Below are positions 3,920 to 51,843 of a stretch of 51,894 nt of DNA, one piece after another. A model generated the notes under the pieces. The model made no database searches, was not told where the DNA came from, and saw only the letters and a list, made by a program, of their open reading frames with translations. The number at the start of each line of letters is the position of its first letter. Position 1 is the stretch's first letter. The stretch lies in the sequence record NC_042122.1; one strand, written 5' to 3'. A program made the translations under genes and the position numbers. This stretch comes from Enterobacter phage Ec_L1.

Positions 3920-4161
3920 TGGATATTCGCGAGGGTAGGGCGGCAGTATGGGAGCACGCAAAAGAGTGCGGGATTGATGAAGATATAGCACGAATTGCTA
4001 AACACTTCGACATCAAAGAGATTAATATCTTTACTCCTGGCGACGGCGGAAAACTCACATATTTAAACGAGCGCCCTCGCAAATTCCACAAGATAGCGGT
4101 TGCAGCTAAACCAGAAAAAACGCTTGACCAATATCTCAAAGAGGCAAGAGGCAAAAAATGA
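3919..4161 (+). CDS. hypothetical protein
   Basis: ATG at 3919 overlaps the upstream TAA, suggesting translational coupling. 80 aa. Confidence 0.4.
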   Translation: MDIREGRAAVWEHAKECGIDEDIARIAKHFDIKEINIFTPGDGGKLTYLNERPRKFHKIAVAAKPEKTLDQYLKEARGKK

Positions 4162-6191: not shown

Positions 6192-6773
6192 ATGATTATT
6201 ATTCTGAACGCACCAGCCGGAGCCGGAAAAGATACCATTCAGCAAGCAATTGCGGATCTGCATGAGGTTTCACAACTGAGCTTCAAAAAACCAATGTTTG
6301 CTATGGCTAAGGCCATGCTTGGCGATATGGGGTTTGCTGAATTTATGGATGCTTACAATAACCGCGAGCGAAAAGAAAAGCCTCTTGATCTGCTTCACGG
6401 CTCAAGCCCTCGTCAGTTCATGATCTGGTTAAGTGAGAGCGTTATTAAACCGCACTTTGGAGACCAGCATTTTGGGAATCTGCTTTATGACGATTACATA
6501 ATGCACGAGAATGACGGCTACTATGTCGGAGTTGTCAGTGATGGCGGGTTTGAGAGCGAGACCATAGCCTTGATCGAAACTGGCGTTCCGGTTCGCCTGG
6601 TTCGACTACATCGTGACGGCTACACGTTTGCCGGAGACTCTCGCGATTATGTCAACCTGCCGCTCTACGCCAATAGTCCAACGTATGACTACCAGGAGTT
6701 TGACGTGCAGCTAACTGAAGGTTTACCAGTTGTGGCGGCGCTGGATATTCTTTCAATTGTCGGGTTGAAATAG
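6192..6773 (+). CDS. P-loop kinase (dNMP kinase / polynucleotide kinase-like)
   Basis: Walker A NAPAGAGKDT at the N-terminus, resembling phage dNMP kinases. Confidence 0.55.
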   Translation: MIIILNAPAGAGKDTIQQAIADLHEVSQLSFKKPMFAMAKAMLGDMGFAEFMDAYNNRERKEKPLDLLHGSSPRQFMIWLSESVIKPHFGDQHFGNLLYDDYIMHENDGYYVGVVSDGGFESETIALIETGVPVRLVRLHRDGYTFAGDSRDYVNLPLYANSPTYDYQEFDVQLTEGLPVVAALDILSIVGLK

Positions 6774-6813
6774 CACGAATTGCTAAAACTGGCGCAACGG
6801 AATGCGCTATTAT
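6769..6813 (+). promoter_or_regulatory. early promoter cassette P3 (AATAGCACGAATTGCTAAAAC + TATTAT)
   Basis: 18-nt spacer with hairpin GCGCA-acggaa-TGCGC. Leader caacgaaacgaaac. Confidence 0.6.
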
Positions 6814-7970: not shown

Positions 7971-8374
7971 AAAAGACAATCATCGCTTGTTGCGTATCTC
8001 TGGCTTTAGTCGTATCCGGTTGCTCTGCTACGTCTGCTCTGACTGGTCTGATCGGTAGCAAGCCGGATGTCACAGCACAGGCCGGAGCCGAGAATACGAA
8101 ACAAACCCTCGGTCTGAACAGCAAAATTGACCAGTCCAGCAAGTCTGACAACACGATCAAAGACTCTTCTGTCGGGGCGGTTGATAGCTCCAATGCCAAG
8201 CGTGTAAACGCGTCAAGCATTACAGCAGATATGATTAAGGCTGATAAGATCGAGATCCGTAACAACGAGTCTTACGCCTGGGAAATGGCGGCTGGGATGT
8301 TCGTTGTTGGTCTTATGGTTGGCGCTCTCGCAGTAACCATTTACGCGACGCGCAGAAAGAACAAAGGAGCCTAA
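7967..8374 (+). CDS. unimolecular spanin (u-spanin), outer-membrane lipoprotein with C-terminal TMD
   Basis: Lipoprotein signal [20 protein letters not shown]-terminal [19 protein letters not shown] plus RRKNKGA. Same architecture as T1 gp11. Confidence 0.7.
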
Positions 8375-8393
8375 CGGCTCCTTTTTTATACCA
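8360..8393. terminator. bidirectional terminator GGAGCC-taac-GGCTCC + T6 at convergent junction
   Basis: Lies between the plus-strand spanin and the minus-strand gene. A/T runs on both sides. Confidence 0.65.
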
Positions 8394-8637
8394 GGATGTC
8401 AATGTTCTCCGAATCCTTAACAGAGTAAGGGATTCCACACTCAACAGCGTGGATAGTTACCGGACTTGATACCATTATAGGATCTGACGCAAATTCGTAA
8501 CCCATACAGGCAACCAGCGTCGCACATATTGCTCGGTTAACAGCATGGAATGGGACGCAATCAGGCAATTCAACCGTTTCAACCTTGCGCTCATCGGTGC
8601 GAGGATTTGATTTAAAGTTTACGCGATATTGTTTCAT
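8386..8637 (-). CDS. hypothetical protein
   Basis: Start refined to the ATG at 8637 with RBS gagaggtg. The listed TTG at 8667 falls inside the promoter -10. Confidence 0.5.
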   Translation of the reverse strand: MKQYRVNFKSNPRTDERKVETVELPDCVPFHAVNRAICATLVACMGYEFASDPIMVSSPVTIHAVECGIPYSVKDSENIDILV

Positions 8638-8666
8638 GGATAGCACCTCTCGTTTCGATGGAGCCA

Positions 8667-8710
8667 ATATAACAAAACCCGCCGAAGCGGGTTTGACAAA
8701 AAGTGCTATT
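8667..8710 (-). promoter_or_regulatory. early promoter cassette P13 (minus strand) with embedded terminator hairpin
   Basis: AATAGCACTTTTTGTCAAAC, then CCCGCTTCGGCGGG-TTTT, then TGtTATATT. Confidence 0.55.
8678..8695 (-). terminator. terminator hairpin CCCGCTTCGGCGGG + TTTT (inside P13 spacer)
   Basis: UUCG tetraloop hairpin plus a T-run on the minus strand. Confidence 0.55.
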
Positions 8711-8942
8711 CATACAGCTTGACATGAAGAATGCAAACGCCGTCCTCGTCGTTAAGACCGTGCTCAAAGTAACCGCTAGCCCTCATGCTGGTTGTCAGCA
8801 TCGAAAGGAGGGCGCAGTTAAGCCCCTCCCCACTTATCTGGTTCACCGCAACGCACTCTACTATAGAGTCAATTACCGTTTGCGCCTCCATGTAAGGATC
8901 TTGCTCTTTCAATTTCATGCCTCCTGAAAAGATACTCGTCAT
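8706..8942 (-). CDS. hypothetical protein (start uncertain)
   Basis: The ORF overlaps the upstream gene by 74 nt; an internal ATG at 8891 is an alternative start. Confidence 0.3.
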   Translation of the reverse strand: MTSIFSGGMKLKEQDPYMEAQTVIDSIVECVAVNQISGEGLNCALLSMLTTSMRASGYFEHGLNDEDGVCILHVKLYE

Positions 8943-9255
8943 CCAGCTTTCCGATGTTCATCATCTCCTTCATGTAAAGGCTCTCGCTCGCTTCAAGTGA
9001 GTGTAGCTCAAAGTCAAATGGTCTGTTCTCCTTGCTCTTCACCCAAGCCTTTCCTCCGGACATATCCAGATAGCCAAGAGTGCAAAGACGAGGTATAAAC
9101 TCGCGACCAACACAGGCGGCGAATTGTTTAGGAGTAACTCCGGCGCTCCTGGCTAATCGCTCACACTCGCGATGACCAAACACAAACATAGATAGCTCCT
9201 GGCGGGTAAATTCCCGCCGTGACTCTGCGAACCGATACAGATCAAGAATGAACAT
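8869..9255 (-). CDS. hypothetical protein
   Basis: 128-aa ORF immediately downstream of the helicase gene. Confidence 0.45.
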   Translation of the reverse strand: MFILDLYRFAESRREFTRQELSMFVFGHRECERLARSAGVTPKQFAACVGREFIPRLCTLGYLDMSGGKAWVKSKENRPFDFELHSLEASESLYMKEMMNIGKLDDEYLFRRHEIERARSLHGGANGN

Positions 9256-9257
9256 GA

Positions 9258-10838
9258 TTACCCCAGTAGACGAGGGTTAATGTAAACGTCATCACCAATC
9301 AGGCAGACGTACCCTAATCCCTCAAGCCTTGGTAGCAGGTGATCACGAATGCGCTTCGTAACTCCAGACTGACCAAAGAAAGGCTTGATCTTTCGCACAC
9401 CCTCATAGATTGAGCGGAACTTGATCACGCCTTTCGCGTTCTTCCCTCGCTTAACGATGAAGTCAACCAATACCCTCATTTCAGCGTCATCACCAGCATG
9501 ACCAGCCGAGTTAGCGGATGAAAGATAGGTCTTGCTCAGTTCATAGAACATCGCAACCGCCTCCTGCATGGTGTCAAGATCGATCGTCTTTGACTTCTGA
9601 GGATTAGAGTTATCGCTTGACCAGTTCCGGATCACGTGAATTACGGATGCGATTCGAATTGCCTGCTTGTCAAACTTACCCATAGCCCCGCGCAACATCG
9701 TGTGAGAATACTTCCCGCCGTCAGCCAAGTGCGGCTCCATCTCCTGGCGCGCTCGGTTCAGGTACTTCATTGCAGCAGTTCCAACTTTCAGCTTGATATC
9801 TGTCTCGCTCATGATCTCGTGAATCAGCTTGTAGTATTTCGCGACAAGCTCACTGTCGATAGGGGTGTATGTGCTGTTACCCTTCTCGTCAACAAACTTA
9901 CGGCGACCGAGATATGATTCTTCTCGAACCAGCAAGAAACGCTCTGAAACACCGATACCGCGTGAACCAGCCGCCATAATGCCCTCAATCGTCTCGTCCT
10001 GAGCAATGACCGCAATGGCACCCATGGCAACAAAACTCATGTTGTTGTCAGCGTTTGCACGAGCGATAGATACGTGCCCGCTATCCCAGGCCTTAAGGAC
10101 AAGCTCACTGTTCGTTTTCCGGCTCGCGTCCTGGTATGTCATACCAAGAAGGGAGTTAATACTCGTCGCCTCATCGGATATTACCGAGAAGTTGCCTTGA
10201 CGGTTGTTGATTCGCGCCAATCCTTCTGGCGTGGTATCGGATACGGGAAAAACGATGTCGCACATCTTTTCTAACTTCTCCTCCAGATCTTCCAACTCCT
10301 CATAAAGCGAGGCGAGATCGGACTTTGATTTCTCTCCCTTAAGTTCAGTTTTGCAGGCTGAGATCTTAGCCATTAAACGCTTGCGCTCCTTCTTGCGCTG
10401 CTCGTTAATGCGATCAACTTCTGCAATCATTGGTTTGATTGCCATTGAGTTAATGGCTGATTTCCCTGTCGACGGCGGCTGACTGGTCACGACATAAAGT
10501 GATGTTGGCTGGTCTGTTCCGTGATAGTCAACGGTGAATCTCCCCAGCATTGCAGCAGACACGCACGCCAGGAAGTGCATGTATGCGGATGACTCCGGAA
10601 ACTGAACAGAACGCGCCGCGTTAGCAGATAGCTTTCCGACGATGTCCAGATCGTTACCGAGGGAGATTACCGGATATTTATCATTGCCGCCGTCAACGTC
10701 CTTAACTTCCGTCCAGAATGACGAAGAGTGACGATAACCATTAGCCTTGATTGCCACGCGAAGAGGTGAGATCCCCTCATTCTCTGCGATAACAATAATC
10801 TGCTGCGGCGTCATGGTTTGTTGCATGTTGTCAAACAT
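9258..10838 (-). CDS. replicative helicase-like protein, DUF3987 / P4-alpha C-terminal (SF3-like) family
   Basis: Walker A QPPSTGKS and Walker B VISDEAT, separated by a charged coiled-coil insert. 526 aa. RBS aaggagcaaag. Confidence 0.6.
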   Translation of the reverse strand: MFDNMQQTMTPQQIIVIAENEGISPLRVAIKANGYRHSSSFWTEVKDVDGGNDKYPVISLGNDLDIVGKLSANAARSVQFPESSAYMHFLACVSAAMLGRFTVDYHGTDQPTSLYVVTSQPPSTGKSAINSMAIKPMIAEVDRINEQRKKERKRLMAKISACKTELKGEKSKSDLASLYEELEDLEEKLEKMCDIVFPVSDTTPEGLARINNRQGNFSVISDEATSINSLLGMTYQDASRKTNSELVLKAWDSGHVSIARANADNNMSFVAMGAIAVIAQDETIEGIMAAGSRGIGVSERFLLVREESYLGRRKFVDEKGNSTYTPIDSELVAKYYKLIHEIMSETDIKLKVGTAAMKYLNRARQEMEPHLADGGKYSHTMLRGAMGKFDKQAIRIASVIHVIRNWSSDNSNPQKSKTIDLDTMQEAVAMFYELSKTYLSSANSAGHAGDDAEMRVLVDFIVKRGKNAKGVIKFRSIYEGVRKIKPFFGQSGVTKRIRDHLLPRLEGLGYVCLIGDDVYINPRLLG

Positions 10839-10914
10839 CTTTGCTCCTTAGTAGGCGGTGAATATTACACCGCCGATCATAAAACACTATCAGTCAAAAA
10901 GCCAGTTGGGGCGC

Positions 10915-11331
10915 TTACAAATATTTCGCTTCGAAAGTTGTTCCATCAGCGACACTGAAACCTACGTCCTCGCGGTACAGGTTCCACGGGCAACCGTCCT
11001 CATCAAAGATGTAGCCAGCTACACCGCCGAGCGCCCGACCGGAATCGACCTGGTAACGCTTGCCAACCTTGAAGGATTTCTTCATTGGGTTTTTGTGATC
11101 AAGTGACATGCACTTGAGGGTTTTGGTTTTCAGTTCAACGAACGTTGCCGCAACTACTCCGCCACTTGAGATAAAGATGTCACCGCTAACGCCAACAGAC
11201 AGGGCAATTTTTTCCTTTCCTTTGCCGACAGTCACATTCCCCTCATCGTCAACTTTTGCCTTTATCATATGGTTGGCGTTGAATGTTTTAGTCAGTGACA
11301 TTGTGCATTTCAGTTTGATTGACTTAGCCAT
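10915..11331 (-). CDS. hypothetical protein
   Basis: 138 aa; first gene downstream of promoter cassette P14. Confidence 0.5.
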   Translation of the reverse strand: MAKSIKLKCTMSLTKTFNANHMIKAKVDDEGNVTVGKGKEKIALSVGVSGDIFISSGGVVAATFVELKTKTLKCMSLDHKNPMKKSFKVGKRYQVDSGRALGGVAGYIFDEDGCPWNLYREDVGFSVADGTTFEAKYL

Positions 11332-11368
11332 TTTGAGATCCTCTTGTTGTCTCGTTTCGATGGGGCTA

Positions 11369-11412
11369 ATGTAACAAAACCCGCCGAAGCGGGTTTAACA
11401 AAAAGTGCTATT
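11369..11412 (-). promoter_or_regulatory. early promoter cassette P14 (minus strand) with embedded terminator hairpin
   Basis: Roughly 60-bp near-repeat of the P13 module. Confidence 0.55.
11380..11397 (-). terminator. terminator hairpin CCCGCTTCGGCGGG + TTTT (inside P14 spacer)
   Basis: Identical to the hairpin at 8678. Confidence 0.55.
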
Positions 11413-12091
11413 TTCGGTTGGCCTGGAATACGGCGCGAGCGAACCCGCGAGGAGTCAGTGACCGGAGTTGTTTAGTCCTGGCAGACTTTCCGCCGAGGAA
11501 CTTCCAGCCCCAAAAGAACATGATCCCTTCATCCTTCGGTAACTCCATCTTAACTGGCTCCTTGAACCCGTTACCGAACCAAATACAGGTTTTCTTTGTG
11601 TACCCGTCTCGCAATGGCATTTTCGGATGCCAGGAACCCTCACGAGCATCCACGTAATAACCGAAATCACGAGGATGAAAATAAAAGTTCGGCTTACCGA
11701 GCTTGTCCTTGTTCGACATCTTCCCTACCGGATTTTCAATCATCCATGGGATGTTAAGATCCTGGCCGATATTCTTGACAACCTTGGCACACTCAAAAGC
11801 GTAATCCATTTCGTTATCATCGCGCTCGTGCTTAGCGCCGGATTGAGCAAATAGCGTGCAATCAGGGAACCCGAATATAATGTCAGGTCGCGGAATTCCA
11901 AGTAGATCGCACTTGATGAGGAAGTCCTTATCGATCCACATGTTGACGTAACGCACCAGGGGGTGATTCATCTTCACGACATACTCACCATGATTTCCTG
12001 AGTCAGCATTGAAACAGTAAACCGTGTGACCATGCTCCGCCCAGGGTAAACCCATAATTCCGGAGCCGTCGAACAATGACCATACAACCAT
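11408..12091 (-). CDS. DNA (cytosine-5)-methyltransferase-like protein (small orphan C5-MTase)
   Basis: Motif I-like LFDGSG, motif IV-like FPDCTLFAQSG (Cys nucleophile context) and motif VI-like IENPVG. 227 aa. Confidence 0.45.
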   Translation of the reverse strand: MVVWSLFDGSGIMGLPWAEHGHTVYCFNADSGNHGEYVVKMNHPLVRYVNMWIDKDFLIKCDLLGIPRPDIIFGFPDCTLFAQSGAKHERDDNEMDYAFECAKVVKNIGQDLNIPWMIENPVGKMSNKDKLGKPNFYFHPRDFGYYVDAREGSWHPKMPLRDGYTKKTCIWFGNGFKEPVKMELPKDEGIMFFWGWKFLGGKSARTKQLRSLTPRGFARAVFQANRK

Positions 12092-12100
12092 ATTTTCACC

Positions 12101-12364
12101 TCACCAGAAAGGGATACATTCTTTGCAAGCGCCATTCTTCCGGCACTCGTCATTGCAATACGTCATTCCGTCATCGGCAACCATCGTCGGAACTACCGCG
12201 CCACTCTCTGCGATCATATCCATATCGCCAAGAGCATCATCAAGGGTGATCTCTTGAGTTGCAACCTTCTCAGCCCACTCCGGATCTAATCCAGCCTTGC
12301 GAGCTTCATAATAGCGGAATCTCTCTGAACGGTTCATTTTTGTCTCCTGTATGCGGCGGCGCAT
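12101..12364 (-). CDS. hypothetical protein
   Basis: 87-aa ORF with a Cys-rich C-terminus. Confidence 0.4.
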   Translation of the reverse strand: MRRRIQETKMNRSERFRYYEARKAGLDPEWAEKVATQEITLDDALGDMDMIAESGAVVPTMVADDGMTYCNDECRKNGACKECIPFW

Positions 12365-12660
12365 GACTTGCTACAACACAAGCCCCAGCCGCGATCTAAA
12401 TCAGATTTTCGTGCTTCGTATACAACACCGCATCCTTTCGCACAACAAACACGCCTTACCTTTCCATTTTTTAATGTTGGAACGTGCTTAGGATTTTCGC
12501 CTAAAACAGGCTCGGTCTTTCTCCAAAACTGCTGGATTTTTGCCACCTGCTCACCTTCTTCATTCACCAGAATAATTACGGATTTTAATTCGCTGGCGAT
12601 CACATCACAGTGATGAGACTCGCCGTTTATTTCAATGAGAACGCGATCACCAGCTTTCAT
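12334..12660 (-). CDS. hypothetical protein with C-terminal Cys cluster (putative Zn-binding)
   Basis: CCAKGCG...CCSKSC motifs. TAATG overlap with the upstream gene. Confidence 0.45.
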   Translation of the reverse strand: MKAGDRVLIEINGESHHCDVIASELKSVIILVNEEGEQVAKIQQFWRKTEPVLGENPKHVPTLKNGKVRRVCCAKGCGVVYEARKSDLDRGWGLCCSKSCAAAYRRQK

Positions 12661-12890
12661 TATTTCACCTCGGAAATGATTGGGAGCATTTCATTAACCA
12701 AACGGATAGCTGATTCAATGCTAACACGCTTAATTCCCGTTTCGTTATTCTTGCACAAAATAACGCTACCGATACTTGAGCGAGTTATCACCAGGCGCTT
12801 AATATTGTGGCCTTTGCTCGTGCGAATATCAACAGAGCCATTAACAGCTACATTATTCATAATTTCGGTGACGCTGAATTTGTTTGACAT
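12660..12890 (-). CDS. hypothetical protein
   Basis: 76 aa; first gene after promoter cassette P15. Confidence 0.45.
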   Translation of the reverse strand: MSNKFSVTEIMNNVAVNGSVDIRTSKGHNIKRLVITRSSIGSVILCKNNETGIKRVSIESAIRLVNEMLPIISEVK

Positions 12891-12922
12891 CTCATTACCT
12901 TACTGTTTTGTTGGATTGAGTA

Positions 12923-12969
12923 AAGTTTACCGCCTTACTCTATATTTGTCTTTAGCAATTCGTGCTATT
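12923..12969 (-). promoter_or_regulatory. early promoter cassette P15 (minus strand; -10 assignment uncertain)
   Basis: AATAGCACGAATTGCTAAAGAC abuts the upstream stop; the downstream -10 is poorly defined. Confidence 0.4.
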
Positions 12970-13328
12970 TAATCGCGGGTTGTCTTTCCGTCGAAAGCTC
13001 TGAATTTAAAGTTCACTGTTGAATTATAATGTGCTCGCGAATATCCGTCAGGGAAGTTAAACCCAGGCTCAACATAACCAACGAAACATATAAAGTCGCC
13101 GTTGTGGTTGATCAGGTTAATTCCACCATCAGCAAAGCTCAACTTGATTAAATTAGCGTTATCTGCGGCCTTATATCCCTGAGGGAAGAATCGATCACAC
13201 GCCGCGATAATCTCAGCTTTCTGCAATTCCAATATCTCAGCGGTTGTTCTCTCAACGGCATCGGAAACAGATCTCACAGTCTCAACCGGAGCGTAATATA
13301 GAGAGATACTTACGTTTACATTTTTCAT
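12969..13328 (-). CDS. hypothetical protein
   Basis: 119 aa; its stop codon abuts promoter cassette P15. Confidence 0.5.
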   Translation of the reverse strand: MKNVNVSISLYYAPVETVRSVSDAVERTTAEILELQKAEIIAACDRFFPQGYKAADNANLIKLSFADGGINLINHNGDFICFVGYVEPGFNFPDGYSRAHYNSTVNFKFRAFDGKTTRD

Positions 13329-13564
13329 TCAACCACCTCGAACTTTGCAACGCCAGGTATTAACCAAACCCCAGCAGGCCAGCCGGAAATGACAATGAAG
13401 TCACCGCCTGTTTTCTTTTGACGCTCACCCTTGACAACAAACTCATTCGGGATCTGCTTGCCGTCAACAGTTAAAGGCGTGGCCTCATAAGTTTCCTTCT
13501 CCTTAAAAGGAGTCAGGATCTTCTTGTCTGTCGACGCGATTACGCGAACACATTTGAGTTTCAT
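13325..13564 (-). CDS. hypothetical protein
   Basis: 79 aa; 4-nt overlap with its neighbours. Confidence 0.45.
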   Translation of the reverse strand: MKLKCVRVIASTDKKILTPFKEKETYEATPLTVDGKQIPNEFVVKGERQKKTGGDFIVISGWPAGVWLIPGVAKFEVVE

Positions 13565-13812
13565 AATTTGCGCCCCTCGTCAATGAAGCATTCAAGAAAT
13601 ACGCTCTTATCTTCAACGTCAAGCGTTGAATGGTTGAGCCATTCGATCACAGTGCCAAGCTGAACGTTATCGGCGTAAGCCTGGCGACCTTCGTTGCAAA
13701 GGTCAACCGAGTTAACAACCGGAGCCTCTACAGTAATTTTTTCTGCCTGAACATCCCAGGATGAGCCAAGGATGCAAGCAGTTGCGATAATGATTGCGGT
13801 GATACGTTTCAT
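13561..13812 (-). CDS. small secreted/periplasmic protein (signal peptide, two Cys)
   Basis: N-terminal signal MKRITAIIIATACILGSSWDVQA with an AXA cleavage site. 60-aa mature part. Confidence 0.5.
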   Translation of the reverse strand: MKRITAIIIATACILGSSWDVQAEKITVEAPVVNSVDLCNEGRQAYADNVQLGTVIEWLNHSTLDVEDKSVFLECFIDEGRKL

Positions 13813-13820
13813 GATTTACC

Positions 13821-14000
13821 TCACTTAGCGAATTTTCTGAGAGCATTGGTGAATTTGTCTTTACTGTTGGCTGACTTAACAACCCCGCCAGTTCTTGATT
13901 TGAACTCAGCTTTTGCAGCGGACAGTGACCATCCGTGAACATCTACAAGGTCAGCAACTTCTAAGGCGATTTTCTTTACTTCTTTGATGTCCAGTTTCAT
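13821..14000 (-). CDS. hypothetical protein
   Basis: Start refined to the ATG at 14000, directly downstream of promoter cassette P16 and the leader caacgaaacataggagagacacc. Confidence 0.45.
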   Translation of the reverse strand: MKLDIKEVKKIALEVADLVDVHGWSLSAAKAEFKSRTGGVVKSANSKDKFTNALRKFAK

Positions 14001-14028
14001 GGTGTCTCTCCTATGTTTCGTTGAGATA

Positions 14029-14073
14029 ACTATACCAAAGCCAGTCAGATCTGTTTTAGCAATTCGTGCTATT
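14029..14073 (-). promoter_or_regulatory. early promoter cassette P16 (minus strand)
   Basis: AATAGCACGAATTGCTAAAAC, 18 nt, TGgTATAGT, then leader caacgaaaca. Confidence 0.6.
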
Positions 14074-14117
14074 TGGAAAGGCGGCGCGGAACATCCGCCT
14101 TTAATGTTTTTGACCAT

Positions 14118-14378
14118 TCAGGCGAAACGTCTTGCTTTCTTCACTCCTTTAAACCGGATGCCGGAGCAAAGCAACTCAGGCCTTACCGATGCGTTGAACC
14201 ATCGACCGGAATGAACCTGGCGAATGTACTCCTCACAGATCTGATTGTTGGTCTGATTCATTGGGATGTACTCCCACCACTTGCGATAACTATTCCAGCG
14301 ATACACAAGAGGCTGGCTATCGCTACAGAAGAAAGTCCCTTGAGTTCCTTCGAAGATAACACCGTCAACGCGATTCAT
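14118..14378 (-). CDS. hypothetical protein
   Basis: 86 aa, Trp-rich. Confidence 0.45.
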   Translation of the reverse strand: MNRVDGVIFEGTQGTFFCSDSQPLVYRWNSYRKWWEYIPMNQTNNQICEEYIRQVHSGRWFNASVRPELLCSGIRFKGVKKARRFA

Positions 14379-14788
14379 TAAATTTCCTCCGGCCAGTACA
14401 TTTTAGTGCGACGAACCTTGATATCTCCGATCCGCTTCATGGTTGATTCGATATGATGAACGGATGAGATCGCAAGTTGCCACAACTTAAGACTCCGATC
14501 CCACACGAACGAATTACCCGCAATGACAGCGAAATCTAATCCGCTCGCTGATTGGTACAGTACGCCATGGAATTTGGCGTTAACCACCTGCATGATCATA
14601 TCAACAGTGCGGCTGATGAATGCCGCCTGACCGATCGCGTTGCCCGTTGTGTAAACCTTGCGCCGAACCAACTCCCAATTCCATGACACGACAACCTCAG
14701 TGTGACCGATTGAGTTGTGATTGCGCTGCACGTCAATACCATGCTCAAGCGCTTCATTAATCGCCAGTGACAGAAAATAGTTTTTCAT
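14378..14788 (-). CDS. hypothetical protein
   Basis: 136-aa ORF. Confidence 0.5.
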   Translation of the reverse strand: MKNYFLSLAINEALEHGIDVQRNHNSIGHTEVVVSWNWELVRRKVYTTGNAIGQAAFISRTVDMIMQVVNAKFHGVLYQSASGLDFAVIAGNSFVWDRSLKLWQLAISSVHHIESTMKRIGDIKVRRTKMYWPEEI

Positions 14789-14988
14789 TTGCCTTGCTCC
14801 TCAATAGCGGCGTCAATTCGTGCCTGTGTTACCGGATGGTTAACCGCACGCCAAACATATCGGCAGTGCTGATCAAGTCGATTAGTCTTGACGGTGTAAA
14901 AGCACTCACCGCTTGCATACTTCATACGGGAATACTCACGCTCGCCAATCGTGACAAATACGAGCTTTGATTCGTTGTTGGTGATCAT
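14785..14988 (-). CDS. hypothetical protein
   Basis: 67-aa ORF. Confidence 0.4.
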   Translation of the reverse strand: MITNNESKLVFVTIGEREYSRMKYASGECFYTVKTNRLDQHCRYVWRAVNHPVTQARIDAAIEEQGK

Positions 14989-15170
14989 TTCTTGCTCCTG
15001 TTATATTCAGCCCCAGCCGCTACCGACTCGGATAAGTAAGTATGACCGCAAGCGCATTCGCACACATAACGCTTGCCCTTCATTTTCAGAACGCGAACCT
15101 GATCCCGAACGCCGCACTTGACGCAACGGAGTGATGACGCGTGAGAGGTTGAACTCATTTCTTGCTCCAA
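14985..15170 (-). CDS. small zinc-ribbon protein
   Basis: CVKCG...CECACGH Cys pairs. Confidence 0.45.
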   Translation of the reverse strand: MEQEMSSTSHASSLRCVKCGVRDQVRVLKMKGKRYVCECACGHTYLSESVAAGAEYNRSKK

Positions 15171-15358
15171 CGTTCGTTAGCCTGGATGGAATACATCTCG
15201 TCGAGAAACACCTCTTTACGGCGAGCCTTAAGCGCAACTTCAAACGGTGCCAGGTCAAGACCACAATCACGAAGGTAGTTCTTTGCGTGCTTCATGGTGA
15301 ATGTCTGACAAGCGTACTCGGCGTAAGCTGCCGCGTGTGCAATGTTAGGTGCTTTCAT
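15155..15358 (-). CDS. hypothetical protein
   Basis: Start refined to the ATG at 15358 with RBS aaggagacatctc. The listed GTG at 15400 lies upstream of the -10 of P17. Confidence 0.45.
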   Translation of the reverse strand: MKAPNIAHAAAYAEYACQTFTMKHAKNYLRDCGLDLAPFEVALKARRKEVFLDEMYSIQANERWSKK

Positions 15359-15386
15359 GAGATGTCTCCTTGTTTCGATGGGGTAA

Positions 15387-15430
15387 TGATAGCGCATCAC
15401 CCCGAACGCGTTTTAACAAAAAGTGCTATT
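15387..15430 (-). promoter_or_regulatory. early promoter cassette P17 (minus strand)
   Basis: AATAGCACTTTTTGTTAAAAC, 17 nt, TATCAT. Hairpin GGGGT..ACCCC around the -10. Confidence 0.5.
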
Positions 15431-15671
15431 GAACCGGATCACCATCAAGCAACTCAGTTACAGCGTCAACGATGCAATGAGCTTGGGTTTGAGGCTTAAA
15501 ACCAGCCTTGACGATACGCCATTTCTTACCGCCGCAATGCTCAACCTTTAACTGCTTATCGCCACGCTTAACGCGGAAGTATTTGCGTTCAAGCATACCC
15601 TCCGTGAATGTAGCCCCAACAACTACGCCATTGTCAGTGGCAAAATCGATCGCGCCTTGAATAGTTACCAT
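15426..15671 (-). CDS. hypothetical protein
   Basis: RBS ggaggcgcatc; first gene after P18. Confidence 0.5.
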   Translation of the reverse strand: MVTIQGAIDFATDNGVVVGATFTEGMLERKYFRVKRGDKQLKVEHCGGKKWRIVKAGFKPQTQAHCIVDAVTELLDGDPVQ

Positions 15672-15698
15672 GATGCGCCTCCTATGTTCCGATGAGAT

Positions 15699-15744
15699 GA
15701 TTATGCACCATTCGAGCCTGATTGGTTTAGCAAAAAGTGCTATT
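15699..15744 (-). promoter_or_regulatory. early promoter cassette P18 (minus strand; leftward promoter of divergent control region)
   Basis: AATAGCACTTTTTGCTAAAC, 19 nt, TGcATAATC. Confidence 0.55.
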
Positions 15745-15929: not shown

Positions 15930-16465
15930 TTCTGTGGAGGATTTGGGGAAAGTTACGGAGGATTTTTCGGACTCAATGCAGCGAACCATTCAGAGATAAC
16001 GCTCATCGTTTCCCCTCCCTGGTGTGCGTGATGTGCTGCGGAGGGTTGCGGAGGATTACGGAGGATTTGCAATTCGGCTCTAGCCCTTGGTGCGTCTGGT
16101 CTGCGAGAGATTTACGCCGGATAATGTCGATTTTTGTGCTGGGGCTGGTATATGTATACATAGAGAAATGATGTGAAAGTGATGTGCTCATACACGTAGA
16201 GAAAAAATGCAATAGTCCAATAATCCGCATAATCCTCCGTAAACTATGAAGAGAGAGACATATACCAATAGAGTAATATAGTAATAATATATATAAAAAC
16301 CCTTATATTACATATATATATAGTATTATTATATACTATTGTATATGAGTTGCTTGGTCATAAAATGAGCTGATTTTACGGAGGATGGTTCCGGCGCAAT
16401 CCTCCGCGATTTAACTAAGTACATGATTTACAAGGCCGCATTTACGGAGGATTTTTTCCGCAAAA
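15930..16465. repeat. iteron cluster A: about 9 copies of (A/G)CGGAGG(A/G)TT in both orientations, flanking a roughly 90-bp AT-rich core (16258-16350); candidate replication origin
   Basis: Tandem block gcggagggttgcggaggattacggaggatt at 16038-16067. Inverted pair at 16381-16412. AT-rich tract with polypurine/polypyrimidine runs. No credible coding capacity. Confidence 0.6.
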
Positions 16466-16483: not shown

Positions 16484-16528
16484 AATAGCACTTTTTGCTA
16501 AAACAGCACCCCTGGCTTTTGGTATTAT
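16484..16528 (+). promoter_or_regulatory. early promoter cassette P4 (AATAGCACTTTTTGCTAAAAC + TGgTATTAT)
   Basis: Rightward promoter of the divergent control region. Confidence 0.6.
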
Positions 16529-17499: not shown

Positions 17500-17687
17500 T
17501 TAGCGCTGAGGCCTGGGTGTTCCGAGCGGGGTTCTATGCAAAAATCGGATTTGATTTCTACATCTGGCACCCAATCAAGAAGATTTGGATCAGAATCTAC
17601 TGGCTTTGTGGCAACACTTACGAAAGGGCGCGTTGCAATCGCAAGTTAATGAAGGTCAAGATCCTGCTAGAAAAGATCCGACTATAG
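17496..17687 (+). CDS. hypothetical protein
   Basis: ATGA overlap with the upstream gene; the stop TAG is the TAG of the next promoter motif. Confidence 0.4.
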   Translation: MISAEAWVFRAGFYAKIGFDFYIWHPIKKIWIRIYWLCGNTYERARCNRKLMKVKILLEKIRL

Positions 17688-18475: not shown

Positions 18476-18728
18476 CAAGGGATTATCCTTATTTGCTGCC
18501 TTGGCTATCGTGGCTGCTGTAATCGGCGGGGCTACAGTGTCCGAGGGATATCGCATTCACAAGCTGGTGAACAGCGTCGATGATGAAGGAAAAGTTATCT
18601 GTGCTCTGACTGGTAACGAGCGAACGCGAAACACTACGGTTATTGTAGGAAAGCTGATTCTACCTGAAACTGTCGAGGAGCAAGAATATTATTGCGCCCC
18701 AGGTAAATTCTACTGGGTTGCGAAATAG
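18462..18728 (+). CDS. membrane-anchored small protein (N-terminal signal-anchor)
   Basis: ATG at 18462. N-terminal hydrophobic segment LSLFAALAIVAAVIGGATV. Confidence 0.45.
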   Translation: MKKVDKGLSLFAALAIVAAVIGGATVSEGYRIHKLVNSVDDEGKVICALTGNERTRNTTVIVGKLILPETVEEQEYYCAPGKFYWVAK

Positions 18729-20295: not shown

Positions 20296-20586
20296 GTGGA
20301 CGGCGAAAACATGCGCTTTTACCCTTCCACGGCTGGAGGGGTTAAAACTCACTACATGCACGACTTGCCGCCAGGCATGACGATGAAACGTATTCGCGAG
20401 GTTGGCAAGGAGTACGCAAAGAACGCGGGGCTACAGTTCAAAGCCAAGAAGATCAGAGGCCGCAACCTCCTGGTCATTCGGATGAGCTTCGTCCCCTGGT
20501 TGATGGATGACTTCTCTTTTGCAGATGGGGTTAAGGGTTGTCAGTGTGACGCGTGCGAGCGCTGGTATAAAGAATCCGGCAAATAG
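20296..20586 (+). CDS. hypothetical protein
   Basis: Start is ambiguous (GTG at 20296 or ATG at 20311). C-terminal CQCDAC. Confidence 0.4.
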   Translation: MDGENMRFYPSTAGGVKTHYMHDLPPGMTMKRIREVGKEYAKNAGLQFKAKKIRGRNLLVIRMSFVPWLMDDFSFADGVKGCQCDACERWYKESGK

Positions 20587-21505: not shown

Positions 21506-22234
21506 ATGAAATTATCACTCAAAGCACTCGCAACCAACCGAATCAACGGATCTGTAACGGCGTTCAAAACCTACCCAGTCTTAAATGACGTGCTGGCAAA
21601 CCTGACGGATTCGGGGTATTGGTTCATCAACGATAACGGTGAAAAGCAGTTCGCATATAAGTTTGCAGTTAAAGACGGATTCAGCGATCCGAAAAAACAA
21701 TACAGCTTTGAGCTTGCGCTACAGGTTGACACCTTGCAAGAAACGATCAACTCAGATGTAAAGGCAGCAATCACAAATGCATGTCGTTCCGGTGGTCACA
21801 TTTACGATAAATTCCGTAGCGGGATGTACTCACTTGGCGGTCACTTTGGAGGACTGGCGACAACCCACAAGTCAATCGTTGGGTCTGAAAAAGATTCATT
21901 CAATGTCTGTGACGCGGATGGAAACGTGAGAGTTCAGATCGGTAAGATTAAACCCGCTCAGAGCGTTAAAGAGGATGAGCGTGACGCGGCGGTTGTCGAA
22001 CTCGACAAGCACCTCCCAGCATACCGCCGATCTGATAAAGGTTTCAACCTGGTAGATAGCATCGCGTGGCTCGGAAAACTGAACACGGCTCACGCGTCGG
22101 ATTGCCAGAAATATGAGGGAATTCTTGAGGATTTGATGGAGGCGTTCGATATTCGAACCATTGACGGACTCAAGCATTTCGCCTCTAACCTGAAACGCTC
22201 CGCAGACATCATCGATACAGTTCGCAAGAAATAG
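21506..22234 (+). CDS. hypothetical protein
   Basis: ATG at 21506 with RBS cagaggaaacaccc. The listed upstream extension would overlap the promoter. Confidence 0.5.
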   Translation: MKLSLKALATNRINGSVTAFKTYPVLNDVLANLTDSGYWFINDNGEKQFAYKFAVKDGFSDPKKQYSFELALQVDTLQETINSDVKAAITNACRSGGHIYDKFRSGMYSLGGHFGGLATTHKSIVGSEKDSFNVCDADGNVRVQIGKIKPAQSVKEDERDAAVVELDKHLPAYRRSDKGFNLVDSIAWLGKLNTAHASDCQKYEGILEDLMEAFDIRTIDGLKHFASNLKRSADIIDTVRKK

Positions 22235-24015: not shown

Positions 24016-24377
24016 TTACTACGATCCTGTTGTGCATTATCTTCTTTGTTTGCGGCGGCGGCTTAACCTTCCTCGCCGTTGCTGCTGGAATCCATGAGTG
24101 TGCTAAAGATGGTGTGTTAGCGGCAGCGTTCTACTCAGAAAAGCGTGGTCGCTGGGAGGTGCTCGGTAGCTACCTGACGGTAGCAGGAAAGATCAGCAAA
24201 ATCCTACGATCTAACGAGGCAGTAGAAAAGCTGCATTACGTAGAGCTTGAACCCACACCAAAGAAAAGCAAAGAGTCATTAAGCAAGCGTTTCAAAGTGA
24301 AGTTGGGCATCAAGCGATCCGGTAAAGGCTGGCGACTTGGCAAGAACAAGTCGGGCAACTTCAAGCAAAGTGAATAA
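24012..24377 (+). CDS. hypothetical membrane protein (N-terminal TM)
   Basis: N-terminal ILLCIIFFVCGGGLTFLAVAAGI; basic C-terminus. Confidence 0.45.
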   Translation: MITTILLCIIFFVCGGGLTFLAVAAGIHECAKDGVLAAAFYSEKRGRWEVLGSYLTVAGKISKILRSNEAVEKLHYVELEPTPKKSKESLSKRFKVKLGIKRSGKGWRLGKNKSGNFKQSE

Positions 24378-24384
24378 AAACTAA

Positions 24385-24405
24385 CCCGCTTCGGCGGGTT
24401 TTTTT
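24385..24405 (+). terminator. intrinsic terminator CCCGCTTCGGCGGG + T7 ending the accessory array
   Basis: The same hairpin again, now on the plus strand with a strong T-run. Confidence 0.7.
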
Positions 24406-24416
24406 TCGTCTGCAAT

Positions 24417-24425
24417 CTGGTATAA
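24417..24425 (+). promoter_or_regulatory. extended -10 promoter TGgTATAAT for packaging/late operon
   Basis: Perfect TGnTATAAT, 10 nt after terminator 24385-24405 and 28 nt before the TerS ATG. Confidence 0.55.
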
Positions 24426-24452
24426 TCAGGCAACCAACAAAGGAGCGCAAAA

Positions 24453-24983
24453 ATGAAAGACATCAAGAGCGCAAACGAGCGCATTACAGAGCGCGGCAAC
24501 TTCAAAGAGTTGTACCGCAAAAAGTATGGTGAGGTGATCTCAAGAACCAAGAGCATAACTCCAGAGCAGCTATTTGAGATGGGGGTCGCTTATTTCGAGT
24601 GGGCTGAGGCGAACCATATCAAAGCTGCTGAAACCGCATCATTCCAGGGTGAGGTTAGCGAAAGCCTGGTTCACAAGGTTCGCGTTTTCACGATCAACGG
24701 ATTCGCGCTGTTCGCTGGTTGCACCCTGAACACCCTGAACAGATATCGATCTGAACCAGGTTATGCCGAGGTGATGGAGTTCATCGACTCCGTTGTTTAT
24801 GAGCAGAAATTCCAGCTTGCAGCCAACGGCATGGTCAACCCTGGCTTTATTGGTAAAGACCTGGGAATCGACAAGCCAGCAAATATCACGGTTGAAACAG
24901 TAGCCAGCGCACAAAGCAATGCTGTTGGCACGGTTGAACAGCAGATGGAGCAGGCAGTTTCCAATGTGCTTAACAGCCTGTAA
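24453..24983 (+). CDS. putative terminase small subunit
   Basis: 176-aa ORF immediately upstream of TerL. Preceded by a terminator and an extended -10 promoter. Confidence 0.5.
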   Translation: MKDIKSANERITERGNFKELYRKKYGEVISRTKSITPEQLFEMGVAYFEWAEANHIKAAETASFQGEVSESLVHKVRVFTINGFALFAGCTLNTLNRYRSEPGYAEVMEFIDSVVYEQKFQLAANGMVNPGFIGKDLGIDKPANITVETVASAQSNAVGTVEQQMEQAVSNVLNSL

Positions 24984-24992: not shown

Positions 24993-26555
24993 ATGTTACT
25001 GTGGGAAGATATGACCGCACAGGAAAAACTTGCGGTCAAGATGATGAGCAAGCACTCGTTTGAGAAGATGATCCGGATCTGGTTCCAGTTGCAACAGGCG
25101 CAAAAGTTCCTTCCAAACTGGCACCATTTATGGCTATGTCACGAGGTTGAGGAAATTATTGCAGGCCGAAGGGGTAACACGATCTTTAACGTCACCCCAG
25201 GCTCCGGTAAAACGGAGGTGTTCTCTATACACCTCCCTGTATACTCAATGATAAACCTCAAGAAGGTTCGAAACCTTAACATATCGTTTGCTGACAGTCT
25301 GGTTAAACGAAACTCAAAACGAGTGAGGGAAATCATCGCCTCTAAAGAGTTCCAGGAGCTATGGCCTTGCAAGTTTGCAACGTCAAAGGATGACGAAATC
25401 CAGATCCTAAACGGTGACGATAAGGTTTGGTTTGAGCTTATATCAAAGGCGGCTGGCGGTCAGATCACAGGCTCGCGCGGCGGCTATATGACTGATGGTT
25501 TTTCCGGCATGGTTATGCTTGACGATATCGACAAGCCTGACGACATGTTTTCAAAGGTAAAGCGCGAGCGAACTCACACGCTTTTGAAAAACACCATTCG
25601 ATCACGACGCATGAAGGACTCAACCCCAATCATCGCAATCCAGCAGCGGCTACACGCGCAGGACTCCACCTGGTTTATGATGAATGGCGGCATGGGTATA
25701 GAGTTTGACCAGATTTCGATCCCAGCCCTCGTAACGGAGGAATACGGCGAATCTCTACCTGACTGGTTGAAACCTCATTTCGTTAAAGACGTCTTGAGTT
25801 CGGAGTTCGTTGAAATTGACGGCGTTAAGCATTACTCATTCTGGCCTGAAAAGGAAAGCGTTCACGATCTCATAGCGTTGCGCGAGGCTGACCTTTACAC
25901 GTTTGAATCGCAGTACCAGCAGCGCCCTATTGCGCTCGGCGGCTCCGTGTTTAATGCGGATTGGTGGACGTATTACGGACACTCACTGGAAGCGCATGAG
26001 CCATACCCTGAAAAATGGGAGTACCGATTCATAACGGCGGATACCGCTCAGAAGAAAGGCGAGCTTAATGACTACTCGGTCTTTATCCTGTGGGGTCGCA
26101 AGGGTGATAAGGTCTACTTCATCGACGGCGTAAGGGGTAAGTTTGACGCGCCGGAATTGAGGACTGAGTTTGAGGCGTTCGTTAAAAAGTGCTGGCGTGA
26201 CAACAAGGCACAAGGCGTGCTACGTAAAATCTACGTAGAGGACAAAGCGAGCGGTACGGGTTTGATTCAGGATATGGAGAAGAAGCTCCCGATCAAGATC
26301 ACACCGCTACAGCGTGATAAGGACAAGGTTACTCGCGCGATGGATGCTCAGCCAGTTATCAAGGCTGGTCGCGTAGTATTGCCTGAATCTCACCCTATGC
26401 TTGCCGAGTTCGTTGCGGAGCACAGCGCTTTCACGTATGATGATACACACCCACACGACGACATCGTTGATAACACGATGGATGCAGTGAACGAGGAGCT
26501 TAACATTGCGAGCGATCCTGTCGCACGAATGAAGCGACTCGCTGGGATGAAATAA
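24993..26555 (+). CDS. terL: terminase large subunit
   Basis: 520 aa. Walker A-like TPGSGKTE and Walker B-like VMLDDID. Strong RBS taaggaggct. Located upstream of the portal gene. Confidence 0.8.
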   Translation: MLLWEDMTAQEKLAVKMMSKHSFEKMIRIWFQLQQAQKFLPNWHHLWLCHEVEEIIAGRRGNTIFNVTPGSGKTEVFSIHLPVYSMINLKKVRNLNISFADSLVKRNSKRVREIIASKEFQELWPCKFATSKDDEIQILNGDDKVWFELISKAAGGQITGSRGGYMTDGFSGMVMLDDIDKPDDMFSKVKRERTHTLLKNTIRSRRMKDSTPIIAIQQRLHAQDSTWFMMNGGMGIEFDQISIPALVTEEYGESLPDWLKPHFVKDVLSSEFVEIDGVKHYSFWPEKESVHDLIALREADLYTFESQYQQRPIALGGSVFNADWWTYYGHSLEAHEPYPEKWEYRFITADTAQKKGELNDYSVFILWGRKGDKVYFIDGVRGKFDAPELRTEFEAFVKKCWRDNKAQGVLRKIYVEDKASGTGLIQDMEKKLPIKITPLQRDKDKVTRAMDAQPVIKAGRVVLPESHPMLAEFVAEHSAFTYDDTHPHDDIVDNTMDAVNEELNIASDPVARMKRLAGMK

Positions 26556-50796: not shown

Positions 50797-50825
50797 GCGT
50801 AAAAAAACCCGCCGAAGCGGGTTAG
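50797..50825 (-). terminator. terminator CCCGCTTCGGCGGG + T7 after primase gene (minus strand)
   Basis: Fourth copy of the same hairpin. Confidence 0.65.
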
Positions 50826-51760
50826 TTTTTGCGGTTGATTAAGACAAGTGGATCGTAAAGCGCTCGCTTGCAACCCGACTTGAATCCTGACTGGTCACTG
50901 TTTGGAATGATAACCTTTAACTCTCGGTCATCTGCCATATAAAGCGTATCTAAGTCATTAGACGGGCAAGCAACCCTCAACTCTCGCTCTCCTGTATACC
51001 TGTAAGCAACGATCTCAAGGTTGCTCGGTTCGATACAAGCCCAGCACTCCTGGCCTGTTGCATTATGAACCCTAACGGCGTCATACCACGAGTTGACCAG
51101 ATAGATCGCCTTATCAGTGCTGCCGACCTTTATCACCGCGCCTCGAGTGTAATCCTTGGCGTAGAACCGATCATTTCCGAGTTCATCTATGATCAGTAGG
51201 TTGCAAAACTCGTCGTCGAGTTCTTCACCCTGAACAAGCTGCATCGGGAGTACGTGAAAAACGCTCTCATCTCCATTCTCAAGGGTTTTCACACCCACAT
51301 CGAATGATTCACCTATAAGACCTTCAAAAATCGTTAGCGGAGTTTGTGCTCGCTTTTCGGTGCGGTCTAATATCGCCTGGCACTTGTCATGCTCCGCCGT
51401 AGCCCCGAATGAATAGCCTGGGTCTTTTGCAGCCCTCTTGTTCTGTTTGATAACGTACTCTTGCGGAACCTTTCCGAGGAATCGACCAAGAATGTTAATG
51501 CACTCGCTGTAAGGCTCTCCGGATAACTTCATCAACCAACCGATCCCCTTATCAGCGCCGCAATTATTGCAGTACGCCCAACCATCACCAACCTTGTTAT
51601 CTTTTTTATTCGTCCAACGAAATCTATCCTTACCTCCGCAGTGAGGGCAATCCTGGTGCTTGCCGTTGAAGTATTTCGAATTCAGGCCGCAAATGCTTTG
51701 CAATGCGTCCTGCCACATGTTGGACATGTACGGGATCACGTCCTCCTCTTGATACATCAT
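50822..51760 (-). CDS. DNA primase (zinc-finger CxxC...CxxC N-terminal domain, P4-alpha/primase-like)
   Basis: DCPHCGGKDRFRW...CNNCG zinc finger. The listed start at 51799 lies inside the promoter -10. Real start is probably ATG 51760, 51757 or 51727; start uncertain. Confidence 0.55.
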   Translation of the reverse strand: MMYQEEDVIPYMSNMWQDALQSICGLNSKYFNGKHQDCPHCGGKDRFRWTNKKDNKVGDGWAYCNNCGADKGIGWLMKLSGEPYSECINILGRFLGKVPQEYVIKQNKRAAKDPGYSFGATAEHDKCQAILDRTEKRAQTPLTIFEGLIGESFDVGVKTLENGDESVFHVLPMQLVQGEELDDEFCNLLIIDELGNDRFYAKDYTRGAVIKVGSTDKAIYLVNSWYDAVRVHNATGQECWACIEPSNLEIVAYRYTGERELRVACPSNDLDTLYMADDRELKVIIPNSDQSGFKSGCKRALYDPLVLINRKN

Positions 51761-51797
51761 CACTTTTATATTCTCCAAAATAGAAACGGGCGCGATC

Positions 51798-51843
51798 ATA
51801 ATAACCGCGCCCGCTTGGGATTGCTTAGCTTTTTGTGCTTATT
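51798..51843 (-). promoter_or_regulatory. degenerate early promoter cassette P20 (minus strand; primase)
   Basis: AATAAGCACAAAAAGCTAAGC, about 19 nt, TTATTAT, enclosed in hairpin GGGCGCG/CGCGCCC. Confidence 0.4.

Follow-up and report, generated by a model that had tools for sequence, protein, structure and literature searches.

Can one short stretch of phage DNA end the transcript that enters it and begin the next one within the same few dozen bases? This question is raised by two near-identical modules on the minus strand of the Enterobacter phage Ec_L1 genome (NC_042122.1; 51,894 nt, the whole stretch analysed and referred to below as the window), in each of which a candidate intrinsic terminator hairpin lies between a conserved upstream element and a -10 hexamer. 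We consider it probable that each module is a composite terminator-promoter cassette for host RNA polymerase, at which transcription would be both terminated and initiated. A first-pass annotation of this DNA had proposed a terminator embedded in a promoter as a portable cassette, and the core of that proposal is supported as far as sequence evidence goes.

The near-exact repeat of roughly 60 bp noted in that annotation was present with all of its sub-parts, as a 63-nt module with copies at 8648-8710 (module 1) and 11350-11412 (module 2) that share 94% identity in a repeat-finder alignment; other cassettes of the same array are 60-71% identical to the two modules. On the minus strand, module 1 (8710-8647) reads AATAGCACTTTTTGTCAAACCCGCTTCGGCGGGTTTTGTTATATTGGCTCCATCGAAACGAGAGG and module 2 (11412-11349) reads AATAGCACTTTTTGTTAAACCCGCTTCGGCGGGTTTTGTTACATTAGCCCCATCGAAACGAGACA. 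The order of parts is plain in both: AATAGCACTTTTTGT(C/T)AAAC, then CCCGCTTCGGCGGG, TTTTGT and TA(T/C)ATT, followed by CCATCGAAACGAGA.

In module 1 the upstream element ATAGCACTTTTTGTCAAAC (8691..8709) is an exact, forward-oriented match to the marbox, the consensus site of the host factors MarA/SoxS/Rob that is considered below, and it contains the TAG (8708-8706) with which the upstream 78-amino-acid open reading frame (ORF) ends. The hairpin AAACCCGC-UUCG-GCGGGUUU occupies 8675..8694, with its GC core at 8678-8691 and a minimum free energy (MFE) of -12.8 kcal/mol, and is followed by the U-run and extended -10, TTTTGT plus TATATT (8666..8677), in which the hexamer lies at 8671-8666 and the TG at -15/-14. 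Discriminator and leader (8638..8661) read CC-ATCGAAACGAGAGG, where the A at 8659 is the predicted +1, and lead through a ribosome-binding site to the ATG at 8637. Module 2 is built alike. Its element ATAGCACTTTTTGTTAAAC (11393..11411), again an exact match to the marbox consensus, carries the TAG (11410-11408) that ends a DNA methyltransferase ORF (11408..12091); its hairpin lies at 11377..11396 (GC core CCCGCUUCGGCGGG, 11380-11393; MFE -12.7 kcal/mol); its U-run and extended -10, TTTTGT plus TACATT, lie at 11368..11379 (hexamer 11373-11368); and its leader (11332..11363) has a predicted +1 A at 11361 (ATCGAAACGAGA...), a ribosome-binding site AAGAGGA and an ATG at 11331.

Several parts of the modules serve in more than one signal. 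The AAA of the element is also the A-tract of the hairpin stem, and in both modules the -10 hexamer itself forms the distal part of the terminator U-tract. At least eight cassettes (8706-8708, 11408-11410, 15426-15428, 6771-6773, 17685-17687, 18726-18728, 20584-20586 and 22232-22234) use the TAG of their element to stop the upstream ORF, and in others that ORF stops at the TAA within GCTAAA or just ahead of the element. The element thus doubles as a stop signal in two reading frames.

The evidence that the hairpin could act as a terminator begins with its copies. The sequence CCCGCTTCGGCGGG occurs four times in the window against 0.01 expected from shuffles (8678-8691 and 11380-11393 on the minus strand, 24385-24398 on the plus strand, 50808-50821 on the minus strand). 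Each copy has a stem of five GC-rich base pairs, CCCGC-UUCG-GCGGG, which in the modules is lengthened by A-U pairs, and the four fold at -12.4 to -13.0 kcal/mol, the module hairpins at -12.7 and -12.8 kcal/mol having z-scores of -2.4 and -2.9. In both modules the hairpin and U-run do sit between element and -10, as had been claimed, and on the strand of both the upstream genes and the promoters; the upstream stop codon lies 13-15 nt ahead of the stem. The tract after the GC core is UUUUGUUAU in module 1 (seven of nine U) and UUUUGUUAC in module 2 (six of nine), the longest U-run being four in each. The predicted 3' ends fall some 11-13 nt ahead of the predicted new starts, near an earlier estimate of about 15 nt. 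A terminator serving the opposite strand was considered and rejected, the plus-strand sequence past the hairpin being UUUGACAAAAAG, with only three U.

Outside the modules the same hairpin is used as an ordinary terminator. On the plus strand, AAAAACTAACCCGCTTCGGCGGG followed by T8 (24376..24426, the hairpin at 24385-24398 as first reported) closes the plus-strand early array; on the minus strand, AAAAACTAACCCGCTTCGGCGGG followed by T7 (50801..50830) comes directly after a primase-like ORF (50822..51799). This fourth copy had been described correctly as a minus-strand terminator, with its position given as 50797 where the hairpin lies at 50808-50821, an offset of 11. The 24385 and 50808 copies share a 30-bp context, AAAAACTAACCCGCTTCGGCGGGTTTTTTT, and each closes a transcription unit. 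Hairpin and U-run together were also found in 725 phage records, in one of which, phAPEC8, it is labelled 'terminator'. As a separate observation, a consensus extended -10 with no marbox, TGGTATAAT (24418-24426, plus strand), lies 11 nt past the 24385 terminator; it probably drives the ORFs 24453..24983 and 24993..26555, whose position corresponds to that of the T1 terminase genes.

Comparison with relatives shows that the stem covaries. Compensatory changes were seen in NBD2 (CCCTC/GAGGG) and BEBK14 (CCAGC/GCTGG), a small sample, and contigs from IMG/VR carry either a UACG loop or a GCCC/GGGC stem (L047, L103), with TTTTG always next. A pattern scan of IMG/VR for the module architecture returned five loci. 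The wider family was sampled from IMG/VR loci with a TTTTT-form element (at least 120, of which 120 were fetched) together with several GenBank phages, 1.09 Mb in all; the sequences are interrelated, and every family count given here is therefore a count of non-independent events. Among these, 13 distinct cassettes are of the terminator type, and their -10 hexamers are T-rich (mean 3.77 T) and all T-initial; among the classes of cassette that have a hairpin, U-rich hexamers accompany this one only. The GC core in this class ends at offset 32-33, against 38-39 in the other hairpin classes, and these 5-6 nt leave room for exactly U4, as TTTTG(T). Taken together, the ordinary-terminator copies, the compensatory changes and the class-specific U-rich hexamers fit a terminator that would work in its place inside the promoter.

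That the surrounding DNA is a promoter is suggested by its layout across the genome and the family. Oriented copies of TAGCAC-N5-G(C/T)(T/C)AA number 21 in the window, and 17-18 of them have a -10-like hexamer exactly 22 nt past the 15-mer core. The elements lie at 369-387, 3985-4003 and 6771-6785 on the plus strand; at 12953-12967, 14057-14071, 15414-15428 and 15728-15742 on the minus strand; from 16486-16500 to 22232-22246 on the plus strand; and at 50306-50320 on the minus strand, besides those of the two modules. Cassettes are co-oriented with the next gene downstream in the minus-strand array (six), in the plus-strand early array (nine) and at 370, 6771 and 50306; at 30389 and 45468 the element runs antisense to late genes. 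The family sample contains 320 distinct element sites; a -10-like hexamer falls at the same offset in 238 of them and at an offset one base shorter in a further 23, and since the loci were picked by the element and not by the hexamer, this fixed phasing is an independent result. The family consensus reads AATAGCAC-N5-GYTAAAA/C, 18-19 variable nt, TnTGnTATAAT, N5, CA, tcgaAAC, a ribosome-binding site and ATG, with the CA conserved 7 nt past the hexamer (247 cassettes). By its sequence this consensus is an extended -10 promoter, with transcription predicted to start at the conserved A. The modules conform, their extended -10s being TGTTATATT and TGTTACATT, with TG at -15/-14 and with A at position 2 and T at position 6 of the hexamer; the predicted start of each is 7 nt past the hexamer. 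No -35 hexamer was found at 16-18 bp from the -10, and a canonical -35 reading was rejected, the only candidate being the TTGCTA or TTGTCA within the element, which lies 22 bp away.

The first-pass annotation had regarded the element as a -35 substitute of no known kind. This does not hold, because the element matches the class II marbox. The published consensus for MarA/SoxS/Rob is AYnGCACnnWnnRYYAAAY (quoted in PMC3709825), a marbox motif is also given as GCAHWWWWTGYYAAA (quoted in PMC6900184), and class II denotes a forward marbox that overlaps the -35 (PMC6900184, PMC12052159). Exact matches to the consensus number 10 in the window against 0.03 expected, both modules among them; all 21 oriented copies of the element fit it, and the TTTTT variant agrees with GCAHWWWWTGYYAAA at 15 of 15 positions. 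The geometry is also that of class II, the 19-mer lying at about -50 to -32 from the predicted start with its centre at -41, within the class II range of centres of -36 to -55. In E. coli K-12, the sequence before the annotated start of the MicF RNA runs ACAGCACTGAATGTCAAAA, 19 nt, TAGAAT, 7 nt, +1, and the spacing in the phage cassettes is identical to this. The micF promoter is reportedly of class II and a target of Rob, MarA and SoxS. Thus, by sequence and by geometry, the element matches a class II marbox, and binding of a factor of this family is predicted.

Such a factor would come from the host. A phage-encoded MarA-like activator was considered and rejected: no AraC-type helix-turn-helix (HTH) was found in 31 proteins (30 window ORFs searched against Pfam and PHROGs, and T1 ST23 against Pfam), and tblastn with MarA gave no match below E = 0.18. 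No papers linking marboxes or Rob to T1-like phages were found, in a search that covered only a minority of subscription papers, so that an earlier description is possible.

The mechanism that we propose for the modules is as follows. Transcripts from the cassettes at 15728, 15414, 14057 and 12953 would run past the TAG of the upstream ORF within the element, and the nascent RNA would then form the CCCGC-UUCG-GCGGG hairpin and be released in the UUUUGUUAU tract, that is, inside the extended -10 of the next promoter. The new transcript would begin at the conserved CA 7 nt past the hexamer. Its promoter would consist of the extended -10 (TGnTAYATT) and a consensus class II marbox without a -35 hexamer, and MarA/SoxS/Rob (RamA in Klebsiella and Enterobacter) would probably replace the contact of sigma region 4 with the -35. 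A promoter of this kind needs no set sequence in the 19 bp from element to -10, and the spacer would thus be free to encode an RNA hairpin.

Several observations weigh against a composite cassette of this kind. The uninterrupted U-run is just 4 nt and the stem core just 5 bp, and termination may therefore be only partially efficient. Module 2 fails a simple terminator scan if the A-U pairs are counted as stem. TTTG upstream of the -10 is common in hairpin-less cassettes, so that the promoter is enough to account for part of the U-run. Two relatives (L003, L010) have an A.G mismatch in the stem, which indicates that the hairpin is not always maintained, and at the orthologous site of T1, before the helicase operon, the hairpin encloses the -10 and has no U-run. 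On the side of activation, Rob is largely sequestered in uninduced cells (PMC12052159).

The modules are part of a larger set of spacer hairpins. Different hairpins had been expected in the other cassettes, and indeed 11 of the 21 window cassettes fold at -9.6 kcal/mol or better. In the family, folding of a 38-nt span (which begins at the element's AAA and extends 10 nt beyond the hexamer) gave an MFE of -9 kcal/mol or lower for 70% of 228 distinct cassettes, as against 7% of shuffles and 17% of random windows from the same loci. Hairpin position is fixed relative to the -10 or to +1: in 81 cassettes the core ends on the first base of the -10, and in 91 it ends at about +1 and the loop contains the -10. 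In the window, the cassettes at 15414 (minus strand) and at 17231, 18726 and 21423 (plus strand) have the -10 hexamer in the loop of an 8-10 bp hairpin with the 3' arm ending at about +1. The stem sequences of hairpins enclosing the -10 vary widely between phages with the pairing kept and with G.U to A.C at two to one.

Across all types of cassette, the stem pairs include 100 G.U against 51 A.C (147 distinct stems), where base composition predicts a ratio of 1.22 and shuffles gave 119 to 189. This excess indicates that the stems are selected in the sense-strand RNA. As a cassette's own start lies 3' of its hairpin, the only RNA under this selection is that which reads through from upstream. 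The 81 hairpins that abut the -10 favour CATAAT and are followed by sequence no richer in U than that of hairpin-less cassettes (Mann-Whitney p = 0.65), so this class has not been selected as canonical terminators; the notion that all spacer hairpins are canonical terminators was accordingly rejected for the -10-abutting class and kept for the TTTTG class.

Selection on the RNA does not by itself make the hairpin a terminator, and a reading in which it serves mainly to protect 3' ends after processing, as a weak attenuator or as an RNase target, with the TTTTG merely part of the extended -10, has to be weighed. The prevalence of stable hairpins in the family, mostly without a U-run, speaks for it, as do the occurrence of TTTG(G/T) ahead of the -10 in cassettes that lack a hairpin and the T1 hairpin described above. 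It fails, however, to account for a GC core that ends early by just the length of U4, for T-rich hexamers confined to the terminator-type class, or for an identical hairpin that is a canonical terminator twice in the same genome, and we think it unlikely. The suggestion that the inverted repeat acts instead as DNA, as a cruciform or as a palindromic protein site that tunes the promoter with no role in RNA, seems very remote. The phasing of the hairpins to the -10 would suit it, and in the comparable cassettes of other phages the authors speculated on a DNA-binding protein targeting the stem-loops (PMC2839356). A duplex or cruciform predicts no asymmetry between the strands, yet sense-strand G.T exceeds A.C two to one, opposite to the shuffles, and on this ground the DNA-level role is disfavoured; moreover, the stem sequences differ freely with pairing kept, which argues against a sequence-specific protein site. 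We give equally little credence to the view that the two modules are simply a recent duplication or gene conversion whose hairpin is not functionally maintained. Their identity of 94% over 63 nt, compared with 60-71% for other cassettes, and the position of module 1 within an insertion relative to the related phage Phc would be expected of such an event. The architecture recurs, however, with changed and still paired stems in the distant genera Vilniusvirus and Warwickvirus and in IMG/VR contigs, and 204 phage records match most of a 76-nt query taken around module 1.

A last alternative concerns the element, which might be bound not by host MarA/SoxS/Rob but by a phage protein, the candidate being a Cro-type regulator like ST23 of T1. 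A homologue of ST23 (54% identity over 130 amino acids) is encoded on the minus strand across both ends of the window (1-337 and ~51842-51894), an arrangement which shows that the window is a circularly permuted complete genome, and T1 ST23 itself has a weak P22_Cro-type HTH match in a Pfam scan. The element also has the symmetry that such a protein could use: in the GAATT variant, TAGCA-N5-TGCTA at its core can be seen to form a 5-N5-5 inverted repeat whose half-sites are separated by one helical turn. In contrast, both modules keep only three to four of the five palindromic positions and yet match the marbox in full, and the right half varies (TGCTA, TGTTA, TGTCA) just as the RYY of the marbox permits, with the left half, GCAC and AAA fixed. 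Spacing and orientation are the same as in micF, the early promoters must fire before any phage protein exists, and the searches for an AraC-type protein, by HTH among the 31 proteins and by tblastn with MarA, came up empty. We regard a phage regulator at this site as improbable.

Two of the element copies stand in a different setting. A near-consensus plus-strand promoter, TTGACC-16-TATTAT (30380-30407), has its 16-nt spacer occupied by a reverse marbox (30386-30404); the promoter lies just past a terminator (30340-30363) and before a 317-amino-acid late gene at 30458; T1 has the same reverse-marbox promoter layout at 15043-15086, upstream of its major head gene. The second setting, at 45419-45483 on the plus strand, comprises a terminator (GCGCC-TACG-GGCGC plus T7), an extended -10, TGGTACAAT (45453-45461), and a reverse marbox at 45465-45483, which would fall at about +1 to +16, with an 820-amino-acid ORF downstream. 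In the first of these settings, the position of the reverse marbox suggests a late promoter that would be repressed by the same factor that activates the early ones.

A wider proposal, which we put forward only tentatively, is that the element is a working class II marbox and that the Drexlerviridae run about 20 early and middle promoters through MarA/SoxS/Rob/RamA and an extended -10. The spacers of these promoters would encode sense-strand RNA hairpins, which in both modules would be full intrinsic terminators, and the reverse marboxes at 30386-30404 and 45465-45483, in or just past two late promoters, could hold late genes off until the factor is titrated by replicating phage DNA. The timing of phage development would then be tied to the antibiotic and oxidative stress regulon of the host.

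The genome to which the modules belong is T1-like (Drexlerviridae), and its closest record is Enterobacter phage Phc of the genus Eclunavirus, at ~89% identity. The minus-strand array comprises six cassettes. It had been described as using the TTTTT-centre variant of the element, which is true of four (8694, 11396, 15414 and 15728); the other two (12953 and 14057) have GAATT. Module 2 is preceded by the methyltransferase ORF and followed by a 138-amino-acid ORF and then by a DUF3987 helicase gene. At the 3' end of the array stands module 1, between the 78-amino-acid ORF (8706..8942) and an 83-amino-acid ORF (8386..8637, minus strand, phrog_30053), after which comes the array-end terminator (8363..8384, minus strand), AAAGGAGCCGTTAGGCTCCTTT plus GTTCTTTCTG, which in Phc stands directly 3' of the 78-amino-acid ORF.

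Comparison with Phc bears on the claim that the hairpin behaves as a portable part, which is borne out both by the 725 phage records mentioned above and by the absence of module 1 with its 83-amino-acid gene from Phc. Window positions 8390-8706, comprising module 1 and this ORF, are an exact insertion relative to Phc, placed between the stop of the 78-amino-acid ORF and the array-end terminator. Module 1 is nearest to the Phc copy of module 2 (93.7%). Homologues of the 83-amino-acid ORF occur in SRT8, IME-JL8 and BrunoManser, those in SRT8 being preceded by a cassette with a different spacer. Presence and absence follow cassettes elsewhere too. An 81-amino-acid ORF (15426..15671) has a cassette on each side; Phc is without the ORF and has one cassette only (9130-9203), a chimera in which window cassettes 15728 and 15414 are joined by a crossover within the leader CATCGRAAC. 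Further insertions or deletions relative to Phc, at 13814-13993 and ~14801-14985, start beside cassettes or leaders, and cassettes or their leaders border the small ORFs that this genome has and Phc lacks. Over cassette 15414, a stretch of 72 bp is conserved at ~93% identity in dozens of Klebsiella phages that are otherwise little similar across the 8-kb region.

A second repeat, ATCCTCCG(C/T)AA, was noted at 17 sites against 1.55 expected (15953-16452 and 50350-50789). The sites gather in two places, the divergent early control region and the DNA downstream of the 50808 terminator, where five tandem copies lie 10-11 bp apart (50737-50789); a regulator may bind them, or they may serve in replication. 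Scans of the window for known RNA families and tRNAs found none.

The unit had also been called unusually compact, a description that gives way before precedents: the promoter-early stem-loop (PeSL) cassettes of other phages and three spacer-hairpin terminators in the T1 record. PeSL cassettes were described in the T4-type phages RB49 and phi1 (Arbiol et al. 2010, PMC2839356). They combine an early promoter with a stem-loop, mostly between -35 and -10 or over the -10, which serves as a terminator or attenuator for upstream transcription; they flank small genes, and genes are gained or lost when cassettes recombine with one another (PMC2839356). The likeness to the cassettes described here is close, since these too are repeated intergenic combinations of promoter and stem-loop (21 in the window, 11 of them with stable hairpins), and the crossover of the Phc chimera lies in the leader, as in the PeSL mini-circles. 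In contrast to the T4-type myoviruses, however, Ec_L1 is a siphovirus of the Drexlerviridae; the PeSL promoter is a strong sigma-70 -35/-10 with an AT-rich upstream region, whereas here a marbox-like element is joined to an extended -10 with no -35; and PeSL stems are typically of G-run/C-run type, unlike the 5-bp core, UUCG loop and explicit U4 of the modules.

In the T1 record (NC_005833), three annotated rho-independent terminators (38973-39001, 39998-40024 and 41980-42007) are the spacer hairpins of marbox cassettes, and, as in the modules, a T-rich -10 and discriminator come next. These hairpins differ from those of the modules in that they abut the -10 and have no separate U4 run, and as promoters are not annotated in that record, the overlap of terminator and promoter is left unrecorded there. 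With micF and other class II promoters, the phage cassettes share the forward consensus marbox over the -35, the 19 nt to the hexamer and the start 7 nt on; they differ in that host marboxes are degenerate and serve one promoter per gene, as against about 20 near-consensus copies per phage genome, and in that the micF spacer has no hairpin. Binding of the activator to the phage copies is putative and deduced from the sequence. Morons are promoter-gene-terminator insertions in lambdoid phages, and module 1 with the 83-amino-acid ORF resembles them as a self-contained expression unit present here and missing in Phc. Morons are independent of a conserved flanking cassette, in contrast to the family-wide repeat seen here, and this repeat is probably a substrate for gene exchange. 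In bacteria, a preprint claims that neighbouring genes have extensively coupled initiation and termination sites (bioRxiv 10.64898/2026.08.19.745784). The terminator-in-promoter design is thus a variant of a known logic and not unprecedented. What is new is the promoter type that the sequence points to, a putative class II marbox with an extended -10, and this combination would explain how a terminator can be accommodated in the spacer.

If the modules work as proposed, 44 bp would combine four signals (stop codon, activator site, intrinsic terminator and -10), making them a natural and very compact insulator-plus-promoter part, and they would show why activator-dependent promoters that lack a -35 can host RNA structure in their spacers. 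Siphoviruses of an unrelated family have their own version of the promoter and stem-loop cassette logic known from T4-type phages, with the same signs of gene shuffling. If the element is indeed a marbox, a whole family of phages in wide use as models and in therapy, with E. coli, Klebsiella and Enterobacter as hosts, would need the host regulators of multidrug resistance and stress or be responsive to them.

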